From a virus (lineage: Duplodnaviria; Caudoviricetes), in the IMG/VR virus record IMGVR_UViG_3300014205_005221, positions 1-64,000 of that record: a stretch of DNA of 64,000 nt; one strand, given 5' to 3'. Made by a program: the position numbers and the translations under genes. Shown here piece after piece: positions 2,171 through 32,997 of this stretch. The notes below the pieces were generated by a model. That model did no database searches. It was given only the letters and a program-made list of their open reading frames with translations, and was not told where the DNA came from. Numbering within the stretch: position 1 is the first letter of the stretch; each line of letters begins with the position of its first letter.

Positions 2171-2440
2171 TCAGGAGCTGGGCACAGCGAGCGCGTCCCA
2201 CAGCGTGTTGGCGTCGCGACCGCACGCATCGCAGCAGCCGTCCCACACGAACGGGGGCTCGTCCTCGGTGTCACGGTTGAGCACGATCAGGAGGTAGCCC
2301 GACCAACGCGACGAGACCAGGTAGCGGAGGTCGACCTCGTCGGACACGCCCGAGTCGTCATCGTTGGCGATCAGCACCCGGCAGTCGTCGCAGACACTGA
2401 TCTCGGTCTCGGTAGGGGCGGGGGTTCCGGTGTTCGTCAT
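2171..2440 (-). CDS. MTNT-tagged small protein with two CxxC motifs
   Basis: tag ATG 2440; TTGACA-N17-TATTGT-N7-ATG; CDDC and CDAC. Confidence 0.8.
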   Translation of the reverse strand: MTNTGTPAPTETEISVCDDCRVLIANDDDSGVSDEVDLRYLVSSRWSGYLLIVLNRDTEDEPPFVWDGCCDACGRDANTLWDALAVPSS

Positions 2441-2539
2441 AAGAGAAACAATACAGCAAGGCGAGCAACATGTCAAGTAGTCCAGCAAAGAAAGATGCCC
2501 CGGGCTCCAGACAGGAACCCGGGGCACGGACAGAGGAGG

Positions 2540-2833
2540 TCAGCCCAGGAAAGGAACGTGCGACCGAGCCGGACCGAACACCCGCTCCGAGCAAGTGAAG
2601 CAACCGCCGCGATCCCGACACGACTCCACCTCACCATCCTCGTCGAGCCACACCTCGACATCCAGACCGCAACGCAAGCACGTCGTGTGCCGCACCTCCG
2701 GACCCGGAGCCTCGACACAGACCTCCAGGTACTGCGCGACGAGAATGGAAATGTTCACGTCCTCGCCCACGACCGAACGCTCGGTCCGGAGCCATGAAGC
2801 GAAGTTGATGAGCTGCTGCGAGGTGTTCGTCAT
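2540..2833 (-). CDS. MTNT-tagged Cys-containing hypothetical protein
   Basis: tag; TTGACA-N18-TAGTCT-N6-ATG. Confidence 0.75.
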   Translation of the reverse strand: MTNTSQQLINFASWLRTERSVVGEDVNISILVAQYLEVCVEAPGPEVRHTTCLRCGLDVEVWLDEDGEVESCRDRGGCFTCSERVFGPARSHVPFLG

Positions 2834-2886
2834 GAGGTAAGACTAGCGCAGACAAGGCAAGCATGTCAACTAGGGAAGCATGTCAA

Positions 2887-3150
2887 CTAGGGAAGCAACG
2901 CAGGAACCGAGCCGTGCGCATCCCAATGGTGATCCTGCAGAGCCCGGAGGTGGGCACCGGTGTCGGTGAACACGGGCGTCAAACACAGGTGACACGCCAC
3001 AACCGACGGACCTCGCACATCGAACCCCTGACCGAACTCACCGCGCAACGCCAGCGAATACCCGGCCCGCACAGCACGCGGGACCGGGTTCCCATCACAA
3101 TCCTCACCGCGCACGATCACAACAACATCAGCCTGCGTGGTGTTCGTCAT
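2887..3150 (-). CDS. MTNT-tagged hypothetical protein, possible C2H2-like motif
   Basis: tag ATG 3150; TTGCTT-N17-TACTCT-N6-ATG; CHLC...HHWDAH. Confidence 0.75.
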   Translation of the reverse strand: MTNTTQADVVVIVRGEDCDGNPVPRAVRAGYSLALRGEFGQGFDVRGPSVVACHLCLTPVFTDTGAHLRALQDHHWDAHGSVPALLP

Positions 3151-3239
3151 ACAAGTAGAGTACCACAGACATGCCAGCAAAGCAAGACGGGCTGCATCCA
3201 TCCGGGTGTGGCCCGTCTGTCAGCAGAGCAGGTGAGAGG

Positions 3240-3467
3240 TCAGACCGCCGGTTCGCGAGCCATGTCCAGGTTCTCCCGGAGACCGTCCATCGCCAGGTCC
3301 ATCACGCCCGTGCACCCGGCGTCCTCCAGCAGCCGGACGTAGCGGTCGGCCACAGCGACCAACAGTCCGAACACGTCGTCGGCCACATCCGAGCCGGACG
3401 CGAAGTACTCGCCCGCCAGCGCGTCGATGTGAAAGTCACTGAACTGGGCAGCAAGGGTGTTCGTCAT
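3240..3467 (-). CDS. MTNT-tagged hypothetical protein
   Basis: tag; TTGCTA-N17-TAGGAT-N6-ATG. Confidence 0.75.
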   Translation of the reverse strand: MTNTLAAQFSDFHIDALAGEYFASGSDVADDVFGLLVAVADRYVRLLEDAGCTGVMDLAMDGLRENLDMAREPAV

Positions 3468-3578
3468 ACCAACATCCTAACATGGTAGGTACTGTGTAGC
3501 AAGGTGATGTGTTGACCCGGAACTAGATGGCGTAGCCGTTCTACCCCCGGGATGGGCTGAAGATCGACAACACGCCGA

Positions 3579-3833
3579 TCAACGCACCTCCATCTTCCGG
3601 ACGTCCACCCCGTTGCGGCGGAGATCCGAGACCGTGTTCATCAGCGTCCGGGAGCACGACGCGGTCGAAGCGATGACACCCAGCAGCCGACCATCGGCAT
3701 TGGTGACCCGCAGGTGGCTGTTGCCGGGGGTGTTGGACACGTCCAGCTCCAGCACCCTCAACCGTTCGACCAGGTCACGGGTGGATCGGGGGAGCGAGCC
3801 CCGGAGCTTGGCGATCTTCTTGGCGTTCGTCAT
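3579..3833 (-). CDS. HicA-like mRNA interferase (dsRBD fold)
   Basis: 84 aa, basic; GNSHLRV motif and C-terminal N..SDLRR.G; tag variant MTNA. Confidence 0.6.
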   Translation of the reverse strand: MTNAKKIAKLRGSLPRSTRDLVERLRVLELDVSNTPGNSHLRVTNADGRLLGVIASTASCSRTLMNTVSDLRRNGVDVRKMEVR

Positions 3834-3873
3834 GTCATAAACCTAGCATGACAAGTCCAACAAGGCAAGCATT

Positions 3874-4056
3874 TCAGCGGCGGTCATCAATGGACGAGGT
3901 GTCCAGGTCCGCGCACACGTAGAACAGCGACCCGGACGCCGTCCAGCACGATCGGTCGTCCGCAGCCTGCACCTCGGGGGCGATGACCGACAGCACGGCC
4001 AACACAAAGATCAGCGAGCCGAGGGTGCCGACCAGGTAGCGCACGGTGTTCGTCAT
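3874..4056 (-). CDS. MTNT-tagged small secreted or membrane protein
   Basis: tag ATG 4056; hydrophobic N-terminus ending VQA-A. Confidence 0.7.
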   Translation of the reverse strand: MTNTVRYLVGTLGSLIFVLAVLSVIAPEVQAADDRSCWTASGSLFYVCADLDTSSIDDRR

Positions 4057-4099
4057 GCGCATGACATTACAGCATGTCAGCAATACAAGCAAGTCGAGA

Positions 4100-4353
4100 T
4101 TGTCGAATAGGCAGGAATGGGGCGGCGCTGCGTGGGGCTGTCGAAACGCGTAGCGGTGGCATGTAGGGGGGTTGTCGAAATGGCGCGGCACGACGTGCAC
4201 GGACAGGGGAGGGGCTGTCGAACTGGGCCGACGTGACACGGCGCGACTCGGCGTGGGTCGTCGAGATGGCCGGGGACGAATGGAAGTGCACCGGGTTGAC
4301 GTGGGTCGTCGGGAGAGATGCGGCGGACGGCGGGATCAGGGGCGGACCTGTCA
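4100..4353 (-). repeat. pentamer-periodic array C (about 6 CGAC-delimited units)
   Basis: GTC(G) delimiters on + strand at 4102, 4140, 4174, 4217, 4260, 4308, 4350; G every 5 nt between them. Confidence 0.8.
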
Positions 4354-4424
4354 AGGGTTTAGCCTGCCCGACAAGCGGGACTTAGAGCAGCCGGAACCTA
4401 TCTCGGCCACCCCAGTCCTACCCC
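4350..4424 (-). promoter_or_regulatory. GGG-TAGGAC promoter plus conserved structured leader of array C
   Basis: homologous to 30500-30580 and 32922-32997. Confidence 0.7.
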
Positions 4425-4425
4425 A

Positions 4426-5031
4426 TCACCAGGCCAACCGAGCCGTCCGCACCCAACTCTCGACCTCGTCGAGATGGTGATCCTCGATGCCGGTCGACGG
4501 GTCCACGTGCAACAACAACGTGGGCAGGTTGCGGCGAGCGCGATCCCACCCGGACAGCTCACGAGCACGGATCTTGCGCGGCGAGTTGAAGCTGTCGTCG
4601 AGCCAGCACAGCGGACGACCAGCAGCGAAGTCGATCATCGCCGGAAACTTCCACAGGTCACGACGCGGGTGCCCGTGGAAATCCACCCACCGCAGCCGAG
4701 GAAGACCCAGAGCCGGTCCGATGACCGTGTTGCAGTTGTGTTCCCACAGCGATGCCCAGACCAGCTCCACATCCGACTCCCGCGACGTCCACGCCAGCGC
4801 GTCCCCGTGCCAGCCCGCCAGATCCAGCCGGGAATACGGGTGCCACGTCGAGCCCGGACGATACGAGATCCGATCCCGAAAGCTCACCGGGCGGTAGCCG
4901 CCCTGCTCCTTGGCATCGAGCTTGAGCTGCTTGAGCGGACGGGCGTACGCGTTGAGGGGACCGTCCACGTCGAGAGCAACGATCGGGGTCGGGAGAGTGG
5001 GCTTGTGGTAGGTACGTCGGGTGTTCGTCAT
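4426..5031 (-). CDS. HAD-superfamily phosphatase (RNA-repair-associated type), MTNT-tagged
   Basis: LDVDGPL motif I, LVWASLW, WLDD; tag ATG 5031. Confidence 0.8.
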   Translation of the reverse strand: MTNTRRTYHKPTLPTPIVALDVDGPLNAYARPLKQLKLDAKEQGGYRPVSFRDRISYRPGSTWHPYSRLDLAGWHGDALAWTSRESDVELVWASLWEHNCNTVIGPALGLPRLRWVDFHGHPRRDLWKFPAMIDFAAGRPLCWLDDSFNSPRKIRARELSGWDRARRNLPTLLLHVDPSTGIEDHHLDEVESWVRTARLAW

Positions 5032-5067
5032 GCTAGCAAGTGTAGCATATGTCAACATGTCTAGCAA

Positions 5068-5180
5068 GTTGCGCACCGTCAGGGGGTCGAACCCATTACC
5101 GCAGGTGACACTGCAGCAGCCGCCAACCGGCTACGGCCCGGTGAGGTCACCTGTCAACAGTGCCTCACCACGTCTTCAAC
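5068..5180 (-). ncRNA. putative structured ncRNA with a T-loop
   Basis: own TTGCCT-N17-TAATCT promoter, no ORF; CAGGTGAC/GTCACCTG stem and GGGTTCGACCCC. Confidence 0.55.
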
Positions 5181-5207: not shown

Positions 5208-6281
5208 CTAGGCAAGCGATGTCACGATGTCAGTCAGCTTCACCGCGTAGTGGTCCTCCAGCCGCTCCTCCCACGCCACCGGCCAGTACTTGTTGCCCCA
5301 CGCAGCACCGGCCAACGCACCGAGGATGGCACCGATCGAGTCGCTGTCGCCGTTGGACAGAGCCGCCCGGCGGAGCAGATCCGACCCGGAGCACAGCACG
5401 TCGGCGTCGAGGATGCCTACGGCCAGAGCCAGCGCCTCCCGCGCACGCCAACCCTCGCCCGCGACCTCGCACGGGTCGAAGCTCCACGGACCACGGATTC
5501 GCAGCTCGTCACGGAGCTGAGCCGCCGCACCGGCCACCCAGCCGACGTGACCCGCACCCTCGACCACGTAGTTGGCCTTGGAGCCGACCCAGACCTTCGA
5601 TCCCATCGGCACGTCAGTACGCTGCGTGACCCGGTACAGGTCGCTGAACGCCGTCGTGTCGTAAAGCGCACTACGCATGTCGTGAGCCATGTCCTCCAGG
5701 TACTCGGAGCACTGACCCGGGACGATCGAGCCGTTTGCCAGCGACCGCGTGAGCCGAGCCGCCGCGATCGAGGTGAACGCGTTCTCCGCCGGACCGTGCG
5801 TGATCACCGCCTGCATCGCAGCGATCGTGTCGATGTTGACCTCGGTGACCTTCGGGTGCAGTCCGATCCACGGAGCCCGCATCACCGAGCCGCACCCGGC
5901 GGAGTCGGACGACGTCGCAGCCAGCCAGCGACCCATGCCCCACCGCTCCAGCCGTCCGATCGAGGACATGCACGTGTCACCGGGGGCACGGTTGTTGCGC
6001 GGGTCGATCGCCCACGCACGGAACGCCGCGATCAGCTCCATACGCAGGTGCGCAAGCTCCACCCCGTCCCACGCGTCGAGCGCCGACCACACCGCCAGCG
6101 ACATCTGCGTGTCGTCGGTGATGCGGAGCTGCAGCGGAACCTCCGGGCCCATGTTGCCGTGCTGGCGGATCAGATGCTCGTAGCCCACGAACTCGGTCGG
6201 AGCACCGATTGCATCACCGTAGGCCATGCCGTAAAGGGCACCGACCTGGGCGTCGAGGAAGGTCTTCGTGGTGTTCGTCAT
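5208..6281 (-). CDS. ADP-ribosylglycohydrolase (DraG/ARH family), MTNT-tagged
   Basis: GDAIGAPTEF, ITDDTQM, GCGSVMRA and GDSDSIGA motifs. Confidence 0.92.
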   Translation of the reverse strand: MTNTTKTFLDAQVGALYGMAYGDAIGAPTEFVGYEHLIRQHGNMGPEVPLQLRITDDTQMSLAVWSALDAWDGVELAHLRMELIAAFRAWAIDPRNNRAPGDTCMSSIGRLERWGMGRWLAATSSDSAGCGSVMRAPWIGLHPKVTEVNIDTIAAMQAVITHGPAENAFTSIAAARLTRSLANGSIVPGQCSEYLEDMAHDMRSALYDTTAFSDLYRVTQRTDVPMGSKVWVGSKANYVVEGAGHVGWVAGAAAQLRDELRIRGPWSFDPCEVAGEGWRAREALALAVGILDADVLCSGSDLLRRAALSNGDSDSIGAILGALAGAAWGNKYWPVAWEERLEDHYAVKLTDIVTSLA

Positions 6282-6363
6282 GCTGACAACTATAGCACAG
6301 GTCAGCAAAGACAGCAACCCCGCTACCCGTTGCCGAGTAGCGGGGTTGCAAGGGTGGGAGAGA

Positions 6364-30255: not shown

Positions 30256-30504
30256 TAGTCGGAAAGAGCGGGGCGGGGACACGCTGTGAGGGATTGTCGA
30301 TGAGAAACGGCTAGATCGTGATAGGGCAAGTCGAAGTGATCAGAGCGGAGCTGTTCGGTGGTGAACGTGGTCTGTCGATTGGCACGGGCAGATTCCGGAG
30401 GGTCCGGGTGCCGGGCGGGGTTGTCGAGAAGCAGCGGTTCGTTCGGGCGCGTACGTGGTCAGTCAAATTGCGCAGACGCGTTCCGGGATACGAAGGGTAG
30501 TCGA
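30256..30504 (-). repeat. pentamer-periodic array B (about 6 units)
   Basis: GTC(G) at 30258, 30296, 30330, 30374, 30423, 30462, 30500. Confidence 0.8.
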
Positions 30505-30580
30505 AGGGCTTAGCCCAGCCCGAAAGCTCCGGGACTCAGGGGCGGCCGGTGCCTAACTCCAGCCGCCCCTGTCCTACCCC
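30500..30580 (-). promoter_or_regulatory. GGG-TAGGAC promoter plus structured leader of array B
   Basis: GGGGCGGCTGG-AGTTAGGCA-CCGGCCGCCCC hairpin, TGAGT, second hairpin, TAAGCCCTTCGAC. Confidence 0.7.
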
Positions 30581-30583
30581 AGA

Positions 30584-31342
30584 TCAGGCGCTAGCGGCCG
30601 TCTTACGACGAGCAGCAGGCTTCTTCGACGAACCCGTCACCTTCGCCCCCGCCTTGCCAACCTCAACACGATCCCAGTTGACAATGCGGTACTTGCCGAA
30701 CGACTGCGAACGGCTCGCACCGATACCCTGCTCCTCACCGGTCAGCCAGATCATGGCCCACTCGGTGTCGGTGAACGCCCAGTCCGAGAGCACCGTGAAG
30801 TTCAGATCGACCTCGTGACAAATCTCCTCGTACTGAATGCCGGTGCCGCGCCAGGTGTGCACGAACCGCTGCACGATCTCATCGTGCTCCAGGACAGACT
30901 CACCGTCCCGGGTCAGATAGATGCGGTCGTCGTCCACGACGATGTGCTCCGCGAGGAACCCGAGCAAACCCTTGTTGGTCACGCCCCAGCCACGCTGGTT
31001 GAGCTTGCCCGCAGCGACGGCAACGTTGGCCGCCTCCTTGAGCGCCGCCTTCAGCTGACGACCTTCGATGTAAAGACCGTGCTGGTCCCGGCGAAAACCG
31101 TTGAGGTGCTTCGCCGAACCGACCAGAGCAACAGCCTCGTCAGCCGTGACACCACGCTCGGTCATAACCTTGGCGACCTCCTCACGAATCAGATCGTCGG
31201 AGGTGCCGAGCTTCGACCGGAGATGACCCTCAATGACCTTGGGATCGGTCGGAGTGCCGCCAGCGATGGCCCGGACGTGGAGGGTGCCGTTGAACTTGTA
31301 CGGCCACGCCTGTCCACGGAACTGCTCGAAAACGCTATCCAT
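30584..31342 (-). CDS. Cas7/Csm3-like RAMP-fold RNA-binding protein (stand-alone)
   Basis: LYIEGRQLKAALKEAA resembles the RAMP Y-I-P-G-S-S-L-K-G motif; C-terminal Gly loop GIGASRSQSFGKY. Confidence 0.65.
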   Translation of the reverse strand: MDSVFEQFRGQAWPYKFNGTLHVRAIAGGTPTDPKVIEGHLRSKLGTSDDLIREEVAKVMTERGVTADEAVALVGSAKHLNGFRRDQHGLYIEGRQLKAALKEAANVAVAAGKLNQRGWGVTNKGLLGFLAEHIVVDDDRIYLTRDGESVLEHDEIVQRFVHTWRGTGIQYEEICHEVDLNFTVLSDWAFTDTEWAMIWLTGEEQGIGASRSQSFGKYRIVNWDRVEVGKAGAKVTGSSKKPAARRKTAASA

Positions 31343-31389: not shown

Positions 31390-31938
31390 CTATGCCGGAA
31401 TGGTCACAGGAGCCTTAACAATCGAGCGCATCAGCCTGTCATACTCAGACTCGGTGAATACGCTCGACACCGTGCCGTCTCCTACCCGGGAAGCAACAGC
31501 CCGGTGGAACGCGGCAAGCATGCGCGAAGTGTTCGCAGAAACCTCATACCGGTCCGCGACAAAAAGACAATCCGCAGCCGTCATCTCGGCAACACGACGC
31601 TGAGTATCCATACCGTCCACCACATAACGCTGGTCGAACGGAGACATCGCTGCGACGTCACCAGTCTGCTCGAACTCCTTCGCAGCGCGAGCGAAAGCTC
31701 CCGCCACCGCATGCGCACGAGCGCGAGCCCGGCGGGAACCGATCACACGGGTGATCTGCTCACGCAGGATGGACTCCGCCCGCGCCTCCAGCCACGCGGT
31801 CAGCACCTCGGGAGACGTCTCGCGCAACGTCGCCACGATATTCGCTGCCGCTACAGCAGGAATGACGTCTTCCTCTGCTTCAAGAAAGTCTCTGATGAAC
31901 GAATTGATGTACTCATCAGGAGATGCTACTTCGATCAC
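31390..31938 (-). CDS. hypothetical helical protein, upstream partner of the RAMP-like gene
   Basis: GGG-TAGGAG-N6-GTG; lies between array A and the RAMP-like gene. Confidence 0.7.
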   Translation of the reverse strand: MIEVASPDEYINSFIRDFLEAEEDVIPAVAAANIVATLRETSPEVLTAWLEARAESILREQITRVIGSRRARARAHAVAGAFARAAKEFEQTGDVAAMSPFDQRYVVDGMDTQRRVAEMTAADCLFVADRYEVSANTSRMLAAFHRAVASRVGDGTVSSVFTESEYDRLMRSIVKAPVTIPA

Positions 31939-31972
31939 AACACTCTCCTACCCGATGACCAGCGAAAAAGGA

Positions 31973-32926
31973 ACGTCGACGTGACACGGGGTGCGCGGAG
32001 ACGCGACGGGCTGAGGCGGAAAGTCGAACCGGCGAGGCACGACAGGAGCGGATGCAGAGCTGCGCAGTCGAAGGGGTCGCGGTGCGTAGCGGCGGGAGGA
32101 TCGAGGGTTGTCGAACTGAACTGGGATGCAAGGAACCCGAGCGGAGTGGGGCTGTCGAGTGGGGGCGACCAGAGATGGGCAGGTGCCGGGAAGTCGGATG
32201 GATAAGGGCAGGCAAGGGATGTGTTGTCGGACTGACTCAGGGGCGCGTTGCGAAAGCGCGGGGAAGACTCGGGACGTCGACGGGCCAGCGGTGTCGAGAC
32301 GGGGGATGTCATGAGATAAGGGGTGGGCGGGGACAAAGATGGCATGGGCAGTCGAGAAGACGTGGGACGGCAGTGAAAAGTCGACGGGTGCTGAAGTGAA
32401 TTGTTCTGGCAAGGGTAGTCGTAACACTGGGTAGTCGAATGGAGGCGAAGCGGCCAGAAGCGCGGCGGCTTGGAGTTGTCAGAAGGATCGGGCTGCGGCG
32501 GCTTGGAGTTGTCAGAAGGATCGGGCTGCATGCGCAAGGGGCGGTGGGGGGTTGTCGTGTGAATTGACAGGAGAAGGGGCGGAGCTGGGTTGTCGGCACG
32601 GGACGCGGCTTGAGATGACCCGGATAGTCGCAGCGGGTGGGCGAGATCAAATGTGGGGAGACATGTCGATGCGCGGCGCGGTGGGCGCGAGCAGGCGTGA
32701 CGATGGATTGTCGAAACGGCTGGTCAGGGCGGGAAGACGACTTGACGATGTCGAGCGGAAGGAAGGGGCAGGGCATGCCAGGGAGTGGTACGGGATGTCG
32801 AAGCGAGCCGGACAGGCGCGAGATGACCAGAAACGACTTGTCGAAACGGCGGGGCAGGGCGCGCGGTGGCGAGCGTGGTCGAAACGGAGGGATCGCGGAC
32901 CGTGCTGACGAGACCAGACATGTCGA
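31973..32926 (-). repeat. pentamer-periodic array A (about 22-25 units)
   Basis: GTCG delimiters mostly 33, 38-39, 43-44 or 48 nt apart; G every 5 nt on + strand. Confidence 0.85.
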
Positions 32927-32997
32927 GGGCTTACCCTGCCGCGATGCGGACTTAGTGGGCCGGGCGCCTAACTCCCGGAGACACAACAATTCTACCC
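32922..32997 (-). promoter_or_regulatory. GGG-TAGAAT promoter plus structured leader of array A
   Basis: CCGGG-AGTTAGGCG-CCCGG, CTAAGT, CCGC/GCGG, TAAGCCCTCGAC. Confidence 0.7.

Follow-up and report, generated by a model that had tools for sequence, protein, structure and literature searches.

VIPR, a gene-silencing system related to CRISPR and described in 2026 (bioRxiv 2026.04.26.720920), associates a Vipr protein with vrRNAs built of pentamers. In the VIPR papers, Vipr is presented as a minimal RAMP that forms a filament, with one protomer per pentamer (bioRxiv 10.64898/2026.04.26.720920,.720927, 2026.10.15.759431, 2026.10.21.760802). The published vrRNAs consist of 9-16 GGY/NN pentamers and end in an invariant 3′ tail; their NN bases pair with double-stranded DNA, every third base being skipped (1-nt-skip rule; bioRxiv 10.64898/2026.04.26.720920 group). 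Seven types are distinguished in the same papers, which also cover staggered arrays, pentamers with another consensus and solo vrRNAs, the latter known in F5 satellites and in vipr-null phages of the SUSP1 family (bioRxiv 10.64898/2026.10.15.759431). Several non-canonical pentamers were reported, including NNNNG, GAC/NN and CAC/NN (fig. S18 of 2026.04.26.720920; section 2.3 of 2026.10.21.760802). An absence of self-targeting is published for VIPR, as is the idea of decoy sites for VIPR complexes, which lie in host genomes. It should be noted that the rules of the system, namely a GGY scaffold, a 3′ tail and a single guide in each RNA, are founded on a few proteobacterial phages.

The window analysed here is the first 64 kb of a 186-kb phage contig, taken from a 2.9-Mb assembly of 398 contigs. 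It contains a periodic non-coding region, named array C, that probably belongs to a divergent VIPR system. Systems of this kind were already published in 2026, and solo or distal guides likewise. What appears to be new is the grammar of the clade, with a C-anchored sense RNA, a 5′ leader, short anchors and multi-unit arrays, together with the variation in the position of the cassettes; as far as the text of the VIPR papers goes, these traits appear to set the clade apart from the seven published types.

Setting of array C

Almost all genes of the contig are carried by the minus strand. Array C occupies 330 non-coding bases, bordered on one side by the stop codon of a HAD-domain gene and on the other by the sigma-70-like promoter that drives a 60-aa MTNT cassette gene. 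Three arrays of this type, A, B and C, and no others, are found in the 186 kb. Arrays A and B surround a Vipr-like gene and its partner gene; array C lies 26 kb away from them, as the earlier note had proposed for a third array distant from a RAMP-like gene. The features used below are as follows.

3874-4056, minus strand: leaderless MTNT cassette gene (60 aa), driven by the sigma-70-like promoter at 4057..4092
4057..4092, minus strand: sigma-70-like promoter of this gene (TTGCTT-N17-TAATGT-N7-ATG), read by eye, abutting the end of array C
4093..4101, minus strand: vestigial terminal unit of array C (anchor + 6 nt, 9 nt) at the promoter-distal end, from the parse
4102..4352, minus strand: six guide-like units of array C with the junction anchor at 4350-4352, from the dynamic-programming parse
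4353..4415, minus strand: structured leader of array C, from a six-copy alignment and RNAalifold
4416..4423, minus strand: promoter word of array C, GGGTAGGA, beginning 2 nt past the stop codon of the HAD gene
4426..5076, minus strand: HAD-domain gene directly upstream of array C (PF18143 in homologues)
5208-6317, minus strand: ADP-ribosylglycohydrolase gene, neighbour of the HAD gene
30258..30579, minus strand: array A (promoter, leader, six units), immediately past the vipr stop codon
30584..31342, minus strand: gene of the 252-aa Vipr-like RAMP that presumably serves the three arrays, from a model and structure matches
31390..31938, minus strand: vap-like partner gene (182 aa), with its own GGGTAGGA promoter at 31953
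31975..32997, minus strand: array B (promoter, leader, about 25 units), upstream of the partner gene

The HAD gene beside array C encodes a domain of the kind seen in 'Swiss Army Knife' RNA-repair proteins (PF18143 in homologues). Together with the ADP-ribosylglycohydrolase gene it forms a pair whose synteny is kept in at least three related phages. General searches of the array region gave little. Neither megablast nor blastn matched it to GenBank phages, Tandem Repeats Finder returned nothing at 4093-4423, and Rfam gave no family, its sole row being a DnaX frameshift element (E 0.98) outside the array. A sigma-70 promoter and terminator scan of both strands of 3800-4600 listed nothing, the promoter read by eye at 4057..4092 included.

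Comparison with described systems

The locus resembles the type II VIPR of Escherichia phage SUSP1 (Vipr, vap1 and four vrRNAs) in being phage-borne and in associating a lone small Cas7-like RAMP with one accessory gene, with neither a CRISPR array nor other cas genes. In both cases, the non-coding flanks have a 5-nt period made of a semi-fixed trinucleotide and two hypervariable bases, and the tracts (GGYNN in SUSP1) lie on the vipr-sense strand. However, this strand is C-rich here, with an invariant C, whereas it carries GG in SUSP1, and the guides have 6-9 pentamers as against 9-16 in the published ones. Many head-to-tail units per transcript are predicted here, bounded by a UUCGAC anchor and placed behind a promoter and a single structured 5′ leader. 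In SUSP1, each vrRNA has an invariant pseudoknotted 3′ tail, whereas here no tail, only the 6-nt anchor, follows each tract. The 252-aa protein is longer than that of SUSP1 (195 aa), without a significant sequence match, and the 182-aa partner is unrelated to vap1. On the promoter-defined strand, the arrays do not show the GGY of canonical VIPR, which lowers the case for a canonical type but not the case for VIPR, since alternative consensus forms are published.

Like solo vrRNAs, array C is a guide gene distant from vipr, it would need Vipr in trans and its presence varies among close relatives. The earlier note had called it an orphan. This stands insofar as no vipr gene is adjacent; yet the same contig encodes vipr (30584-31342), so that distal array describes it better than true orphan. 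Moreover, it consists of six units and a leader, unlike the one or two single vrRNAs of the solo cases. The same note had regarded the persistence of the array in phages lacking the RAMP-like gene as a refutation, but this is not a valid one, because solo vrRNAs are published in vipr-null phages.

The staggered and non-canonical VIPR arrays share with the present ones the lack of long tails between abutting units and a departure of the pentamers from GGY/NN. The running text of these papers contains no C-rich sense-strand array, no GAC-anchored units and no promoter-leader, although the arrays studied here may overlap one of the seven types. CRISPR arrays and the Cas7 filaments of class 1 are comparable in having a promoter-leader, many unique guides split by a constant word and, as would be expected here, periodic binding of the RNA by a Cas7-fold protein. 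In contrast to CRISPR, where repeats measure 24-48 nt, the constant word here is 6-12 nt long. The period is 5 instead of 6, contiguous spacers are lacking, and no cas1/cas2, cas6 or other cas genes are present.

Grammar of the units

The dynamic-programming parse, which rewards a G at every fifth base, divides array C into units at 4102 (38 nt, 7 pentamers), 4140 (34 nt), 4174 (43 nt), 4217 (43 nt), 4260 (48 nt) and 4308 (42 nt), with 6-9 pentamers each. Splitting at GTCGA-like words gives the same spacings, and the six units put forward in the earlier note, spaced by 38, 34, 43, 43, 48 and 42, are reproduced exactly. On the plus strand, all steps except one begin with G. The parse score is 50.2, as compared with 22.9 ± 3.2 in 500 dinucleotide-preserving shuffles, none of which scored as high (z = 8.7). 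This agrees with the earlier view that the region is not a low-complexity artefact and that it obeys the same five-base rule as the other arrays, with which it has grammar and anchor in common. Autocorrelation of G in array C reaches z = 2.2 for lag 5 and z = 3.4 for lag 10. When the whole 186-kb contig is scanned for periodicity, arrays B, C and A give the highest windows.

A logo built on 41 anchors shows G at +3, +8 (85%), +13, +18, -5 (85%) and -10, and the unit lengths move in 5-nt steps. The best reading of the anchor is a GTC trinucleotide joined directly to a GAA trinucleotide, without a variable pair between them, which accounts for unit lengths of 3 + 5n. At most, the constant word between units is GGGYT-GTCGAA. 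Statistics on pentamers were taken in phase on the plus strand of all three arrays, among those starting with G, so that position 1 is G by selection; position 2 is a purine in 77% of them and positions 4-5 have a near-maximal entropy (1.94-1.96 bits). The trinucleotide thus reads G-R-N on the plus strand and N-Y-C on the promoter-defined minus strand, where GGY is absent. The plus strand of array C contains 47% G and 21% C, the opposite of the window average.

Among the 34 guides that were compared, guide content in common is no higher than chance and no unit of array C repeats a unit of A or B. The comparison of units suggested by the earlier note therefore yields a common grammar with guide content not shared above chance, which makes the units spacer-like in their diversity. 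The register of the unit nearest the leader (4308) is irregular, that of the others being almost perfect.

The Vipr-like protein, its partner and their link to the arrays

Sequence searches with the 252-aa ORF gave no match in Pfam, PHROG or the PDB. Its AF2/AlphaFold model (pLDDT 77.5) retrieved with Foldseek top matches that are all Csm3/Cas7 (E 1e-5), and VIA-align superimposed it on Csm3 (6ae2_B) with Z 10.2 and an rmsd of 3.3 over 155 residues. The model shows a long beta-hairpin at 155-186. No solved Vipr structure is among the library matches. According to this model, the protein folds as a Cas7/Csm3-like RAMP, and in this it corresponds to the minimal RAMP that defines Vipr, with its RRM core, glycine-rich loop and thumb hairpin.

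More than 1165 homologues at 60-70% identity were found, the named ones coming from Streptomyces, Nocardiopsis, Pseudonocardia and similar genera. The motif G-I-G-A-S-R-S-Q-x-F-G (residues 206-216) is invariant in this family. Comparison of the family profile with SUSP1 Vipr by hhalign gave a probability of 1.1% and E 0.048, with a convincing alignment in the G-loop region alone. In this weak alignment, GIGASR of the family stands opposite G-V-G-D-W-R-P-R-F-G of SUSP1 Vipr. It is suggestive only, as read from the aligned sequences, that the guanine-reading Asp177 and Trp178 of SUSP1 Vipr may be replaced by Ala and Ser in this clade.

Linkage of the protein to periodic arrays was assessed at 36 loci having a Vipr-like homologue (26 IMG/VR contigs, an AICE-like element, three metagenomic phage fragments, five partner-gene loci and the phage Mae-JY09). 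In 35 of them a 5-periodic array is found on the strand of the gene, C-rich on that strand. It often abuts the vipr start codon or lies between the partner gene and vipr. A sixth partner-gene locus (L162) has neither a vipr match nor an array. Several readings of the periodic region were dropped once this link with the RAMP gene held across loci, namely TRAP-like ring binding, a Rho or CsrA-type sponge, a TIGR-Tas array, a telomere-like repeat and a coding repeat.

In the phage, the vipr locus comprises vipr and one vap-like gene with long non-coding flanks, without CRISPR and without cas genes besides the lone RAMP, which agrees with the minimal, mostly viral loci of VIPR. The 182-aa partner is encoded upstream of vipr in four other fragments (L004, L007, L008, L009), and the order partner, array, vipr is seen in four more (L161, L164, L165, L166). 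Only seven homologues of the partner occur in 5.8 billion proteins, and those for which the context was fetched adjoin phage-type vipr genes. Its model (pLDDT 78) consists of a 50-residue helix and a small alpha/beta domain. It has no match in Pfam or PHROG and no fold match in the PDB at E <= 0.001, so that no processing nuclease is proposed.

Other members of the family show varied surroundings. Many cellular or proviral copies of the vipr-like gene lie in conjugative-element-like contexts (TrbL, NlpC/P60, DUF2637, FtsK/SpoIIIE). At L001:5165-5990, an 830-nt CCC/NN array fills the entire gap up to the ribosome-binding site. On another viral contig, a periodic array with GTC anchors (L026:13340-13740) lies 3.4 kb downstream of the vipr homologue, showing that distal arrays are not unique to the phage studied here. 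The sole GenBank phage with a Vipr-like homologue is Microcystis phage Mae-JY09 (PP395641.1, L167), an isolated phage whose protein is 35% identical. In this phage the homologue is at 2420-3166 and is directly followed, on the same strand, by a C-rich, CGAC-anchored periodic tract (3170-3560).

Promoter, leader and the strand of the RNA

Of the 69 copies of the promoter word GGGTAGRA on the 186-kb contig, 67 are on the minus strand and two on the plus strand, and most stand 7 nt ahead of an ATG or GTG; the other 2.7 Mb of the assembly contain 74 copies. The contig thus appears to be transcribed almost wholly in one direction. Each of the three arrays starts on the minus strand with this word (4423, 30579 and 32997). 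Behind it, a leader of about 60-65 nt forms hairpin 1, a linker and hairpins 2 and 3, and runs into the first GAC anchor. In array C, the loop of hairpin 1 is GAGATAGGTT and the linker is CTAAGTCC; across the three arrays the loop reads GAG(A/T)TAGG and the linker CT(A/G)AGTCC. This leader signature occurs three times in the whole 2.9-Mb assembly. The promoter and leader claimed earlier to be shared with the other arrays are therefore confirmed, array C having GGGTAGGA at 4416-4423 (minus) and its leader at 4353-4415.

Related leader copies are present in two metagenomic phage fragments, L004 having two and L159 one. Alignment of these with the three copies of the window shows a common architecture with differing stems. 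RNAalifold, run with five copies, favours the minus strand (-11.6 kcal/mol) over the plus strand (-6.6 kcal/mol); 8 pairs are retained through changes on both sides, and several G.U pairs of the leader become C.A mismatches on the plus strand. Folding of the whole of array C does not discriminate between strands (z about +0.8 on both; -92 kcal/mol for minus, -128 kcal/mol for plus). It should be noted that transcription starting 7 nt past the promoter word, as for the leaderless genes, would omit part of the outer stem of hairpin 1. A scan of IMG/VR with a leader motif was too loose, giving at least 117 matches, none with the full leader.

The strand that serves as RNA has to be considered with care. 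If it were the plus strand, the RNA would be G-rich and antisense to all neighbouring genes, its pentamers would be near-canonical G-R-N/NN, and the conserved 80-nt element would have the role of a 3′ tail, as in the vrRNAs of SUSP1. An invariant G followed by a purine (77%) indeed resembles GGY/NN, the G-strand trinucleotide is GGS in L004 and L001, the conserved element would sit 3′ of the units like the published tail, and published Vipr reads guanines, to which G-R-N/NN looks closer. Yet no promoter-like element common to the left ends of the three arrays was found on the plus strand, and neither of the two plus-strand copies of the promoter word is near an array. In the wider family, arrays that abut the vipr start or lie between co-directional genes leave no room for an antisense promoter. 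The G.U pairs of the leader are lost on that strand, the presumed tail would be carried by the last unit alone, out of 6-25, and, in the weak alignment, the guanine-reading D177 and W178 of SUSP1 correspond to Ala and Ser. A plus-strand RNA is therefore unlikely, though it is the main rival reading. The vipr-sense arrays of this clade are C-rich and the GGYNN tracts of SUSP1 are also on the sense strand, which makes sense transcription the rule and the RNA of this clade C-rich. Together with the bias of the promoter word, the lack of a shared plus-strand promoter and the asymmetry of the leader fold, this makes the minus-strand, C-anchored reading the best supported, and we consider it probable.

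Position of the cassette in related phages

Three phage fragments found through homologues of the flanking HAD gene (L156, L158 and L159) have the same order of ADP-ribosylglycohydrolase, HAD and MTNT-cassette genes as the window. In all three, the next gene follows the HAD gene after 43-168 nt and the array is absent from this place. In L156 and L158, the HAD gene is followed by a leaderless MTNT cassette behind the same sigma-70-like promoter. L159 carries an array elsewhere, at 4028-4300. In it, the GGGTAGGA promoter is combined with a leader, whose loop is GGGGATTGGCT and whose linker is CTAAGTCC, and with four units of 38, 38, 33 and 33 nt. It lies between the ADP-ribosylglycohydrolase gene and a sigma-70-driven ncRNA/HAD block, about 0.9 kb further upstream than the site of array C. 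The vipr-bearing fragment L004 and L159 share one sample of origin (SRR27544741).

The array-free site in relatives and the displaced cassette of L159 indicate that cassettes occupy different intergenic sites in related phages, which gives comparative support to the mobility proposed in the earlier note. No target-site duplication was found. These syntenic relatives support the idea of a portable, trans-acting cassette. If it works, array C would use the Vipr-like protein made 26 kb away, in trans. Indeed, no RAMP gene is adjacent, the promoter, leader and grammar are those of A and B, and the partner gene has the same promoter word, so that co-expression and use of the distant protein are the simplest reading; the trans action suggested earlier appears essentially right.

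Search for targets

The 34 guides were decoded according to the published rule (NN and one wildcard), with 0-, 2- and 3-nt skips and with rules using 3 or 4 of the 5 bases, and matches were compared with shuffled-guide nulls. No guide exceeded these nulls in the 2.9-Mb assembly, in the phage contig with arrays masked, in 26 viral vipr loci together with L001-L009, or in the sister-phage fragments L156, L158, L159, L004, L007 and L009. Nor do the guides spell the neighbouring gene as carried by sister phages. The exact 18-base pattern of unit 4260, which contains the longest guide of array C, had two matches in IMG/VR, both in contigs of 45% GC and at chance level; with at most one mismatch, it had one match in 390 genomes of the host order, as did the reversed-pattern control. 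The phage is matched by its own guides no better than by chance, which is in line with the published lack of self-targeting.

Proposed mechanism and implications

The region 4093-4423 of the window is probably a self-contained promoter-leader-guide cassette of a divergent VIPR system. It can be proposed that a sigma-type promoter of the phage itself (GGGTAGGA) would start a minus-strand transcript made of a folded leader of about 60 nt and six C-rich units. Each unit RNA would contain 6-9 pentamers, formed by two variable bases and a semi-fixed trinucleotide ending in an invariant C, and its borders would be UUCGAC, where two trinucleotides abut without a variable pair. Cas7-like Vipr protomers produced from the distant gene would bind one per pentamer, hiding the fixed bases and presenting the variable dinucleotides. 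By analogy with published VIPR, the unit or a piece processed from it may then find its gapped target sequence in the DNA of a competing mobile element, with silencing as the outcome. Such a cassette would be accessory, and could be gained, lost or relocated.

Two other explanations deserve attention. The array might act as DNA, its units being iterons bound by protein. Such a site could serve the Vipr complex or another DNA-binding protein as a decoy or for loading, or it could have a part in replication or partition. The short GTCGA anchors are regularly spaced, every 34-48 bp, and decoy sites are published for VIPR, though in host genomes. Against this, the variable dinucleotides have near-maximal entropy and no content is common to two units, unlike in iterons; each array has a dedicated promoter and a covarying folded leader; with the three arrays masked, the guides find no match above chance in the phage itself; and the strict linkage to an RNA-binding RAMP fold across 35 loci points to RNA. 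A purely DNA-level role is thus very improbable. Equally hard to credit is the view that recombination left array C as a partial copy of the main arrays, now without function and in decay. The irregular register of unit 4308, the 9-nt vestige at the far end and the failure to find a target would fit with decay. However, the promoter word is intact, the leader stems are kept with compensatory and G.U changes, five of the six units are almost perfectly in register and none was copied from A or B. A functional, RNA-producing guide cassette is the preferred reading.

At the level of the clade, a broader proposal can be made, which we regard as having an even chance of being correct. This clade, which is both actinobacterial and phage-borne, would use a complementary, cytosine-anchored pentamer code on sense RNA, with CRISPR-like multi-unit arrays behind a promoter and a structured leader, and cassettes moving as units between intergenic sites of related large phages. 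It would then represent a distinct VIPR type with altered G-loop recognition (Asp/Trp to Ala/Ser). A large and well-conserved actinobacterial clade of more than 1100 proteins that apparently builds its guides on C would mean that the code by which a RAMP recognises RNA can evolve. Moreover, 6-25 guides behind one leader, with cassettes scattered in a 186-kb genome, would bring VIPR and CRISPR arrays closer in architecture. Array C is the piece that bears on cassettes placed away from the protein gene, at positions differing between relatives, with a use in trans as the likely consequence. If true, a second scaffold chemistry would be at hand, and with it a broader choice of programmable gapped-code DNA binders for practical use.

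Finally, array B offers an observation on the origin of the units. Its segment 32462-32529 is a perfect 33-nt tandem duplication, corresponding to exactly one unit, and the units at 32478 and 32511 have identical first three pentamers. This one-unit duplication raises the possibility that arrays grow by duplication of units followed by divergence.
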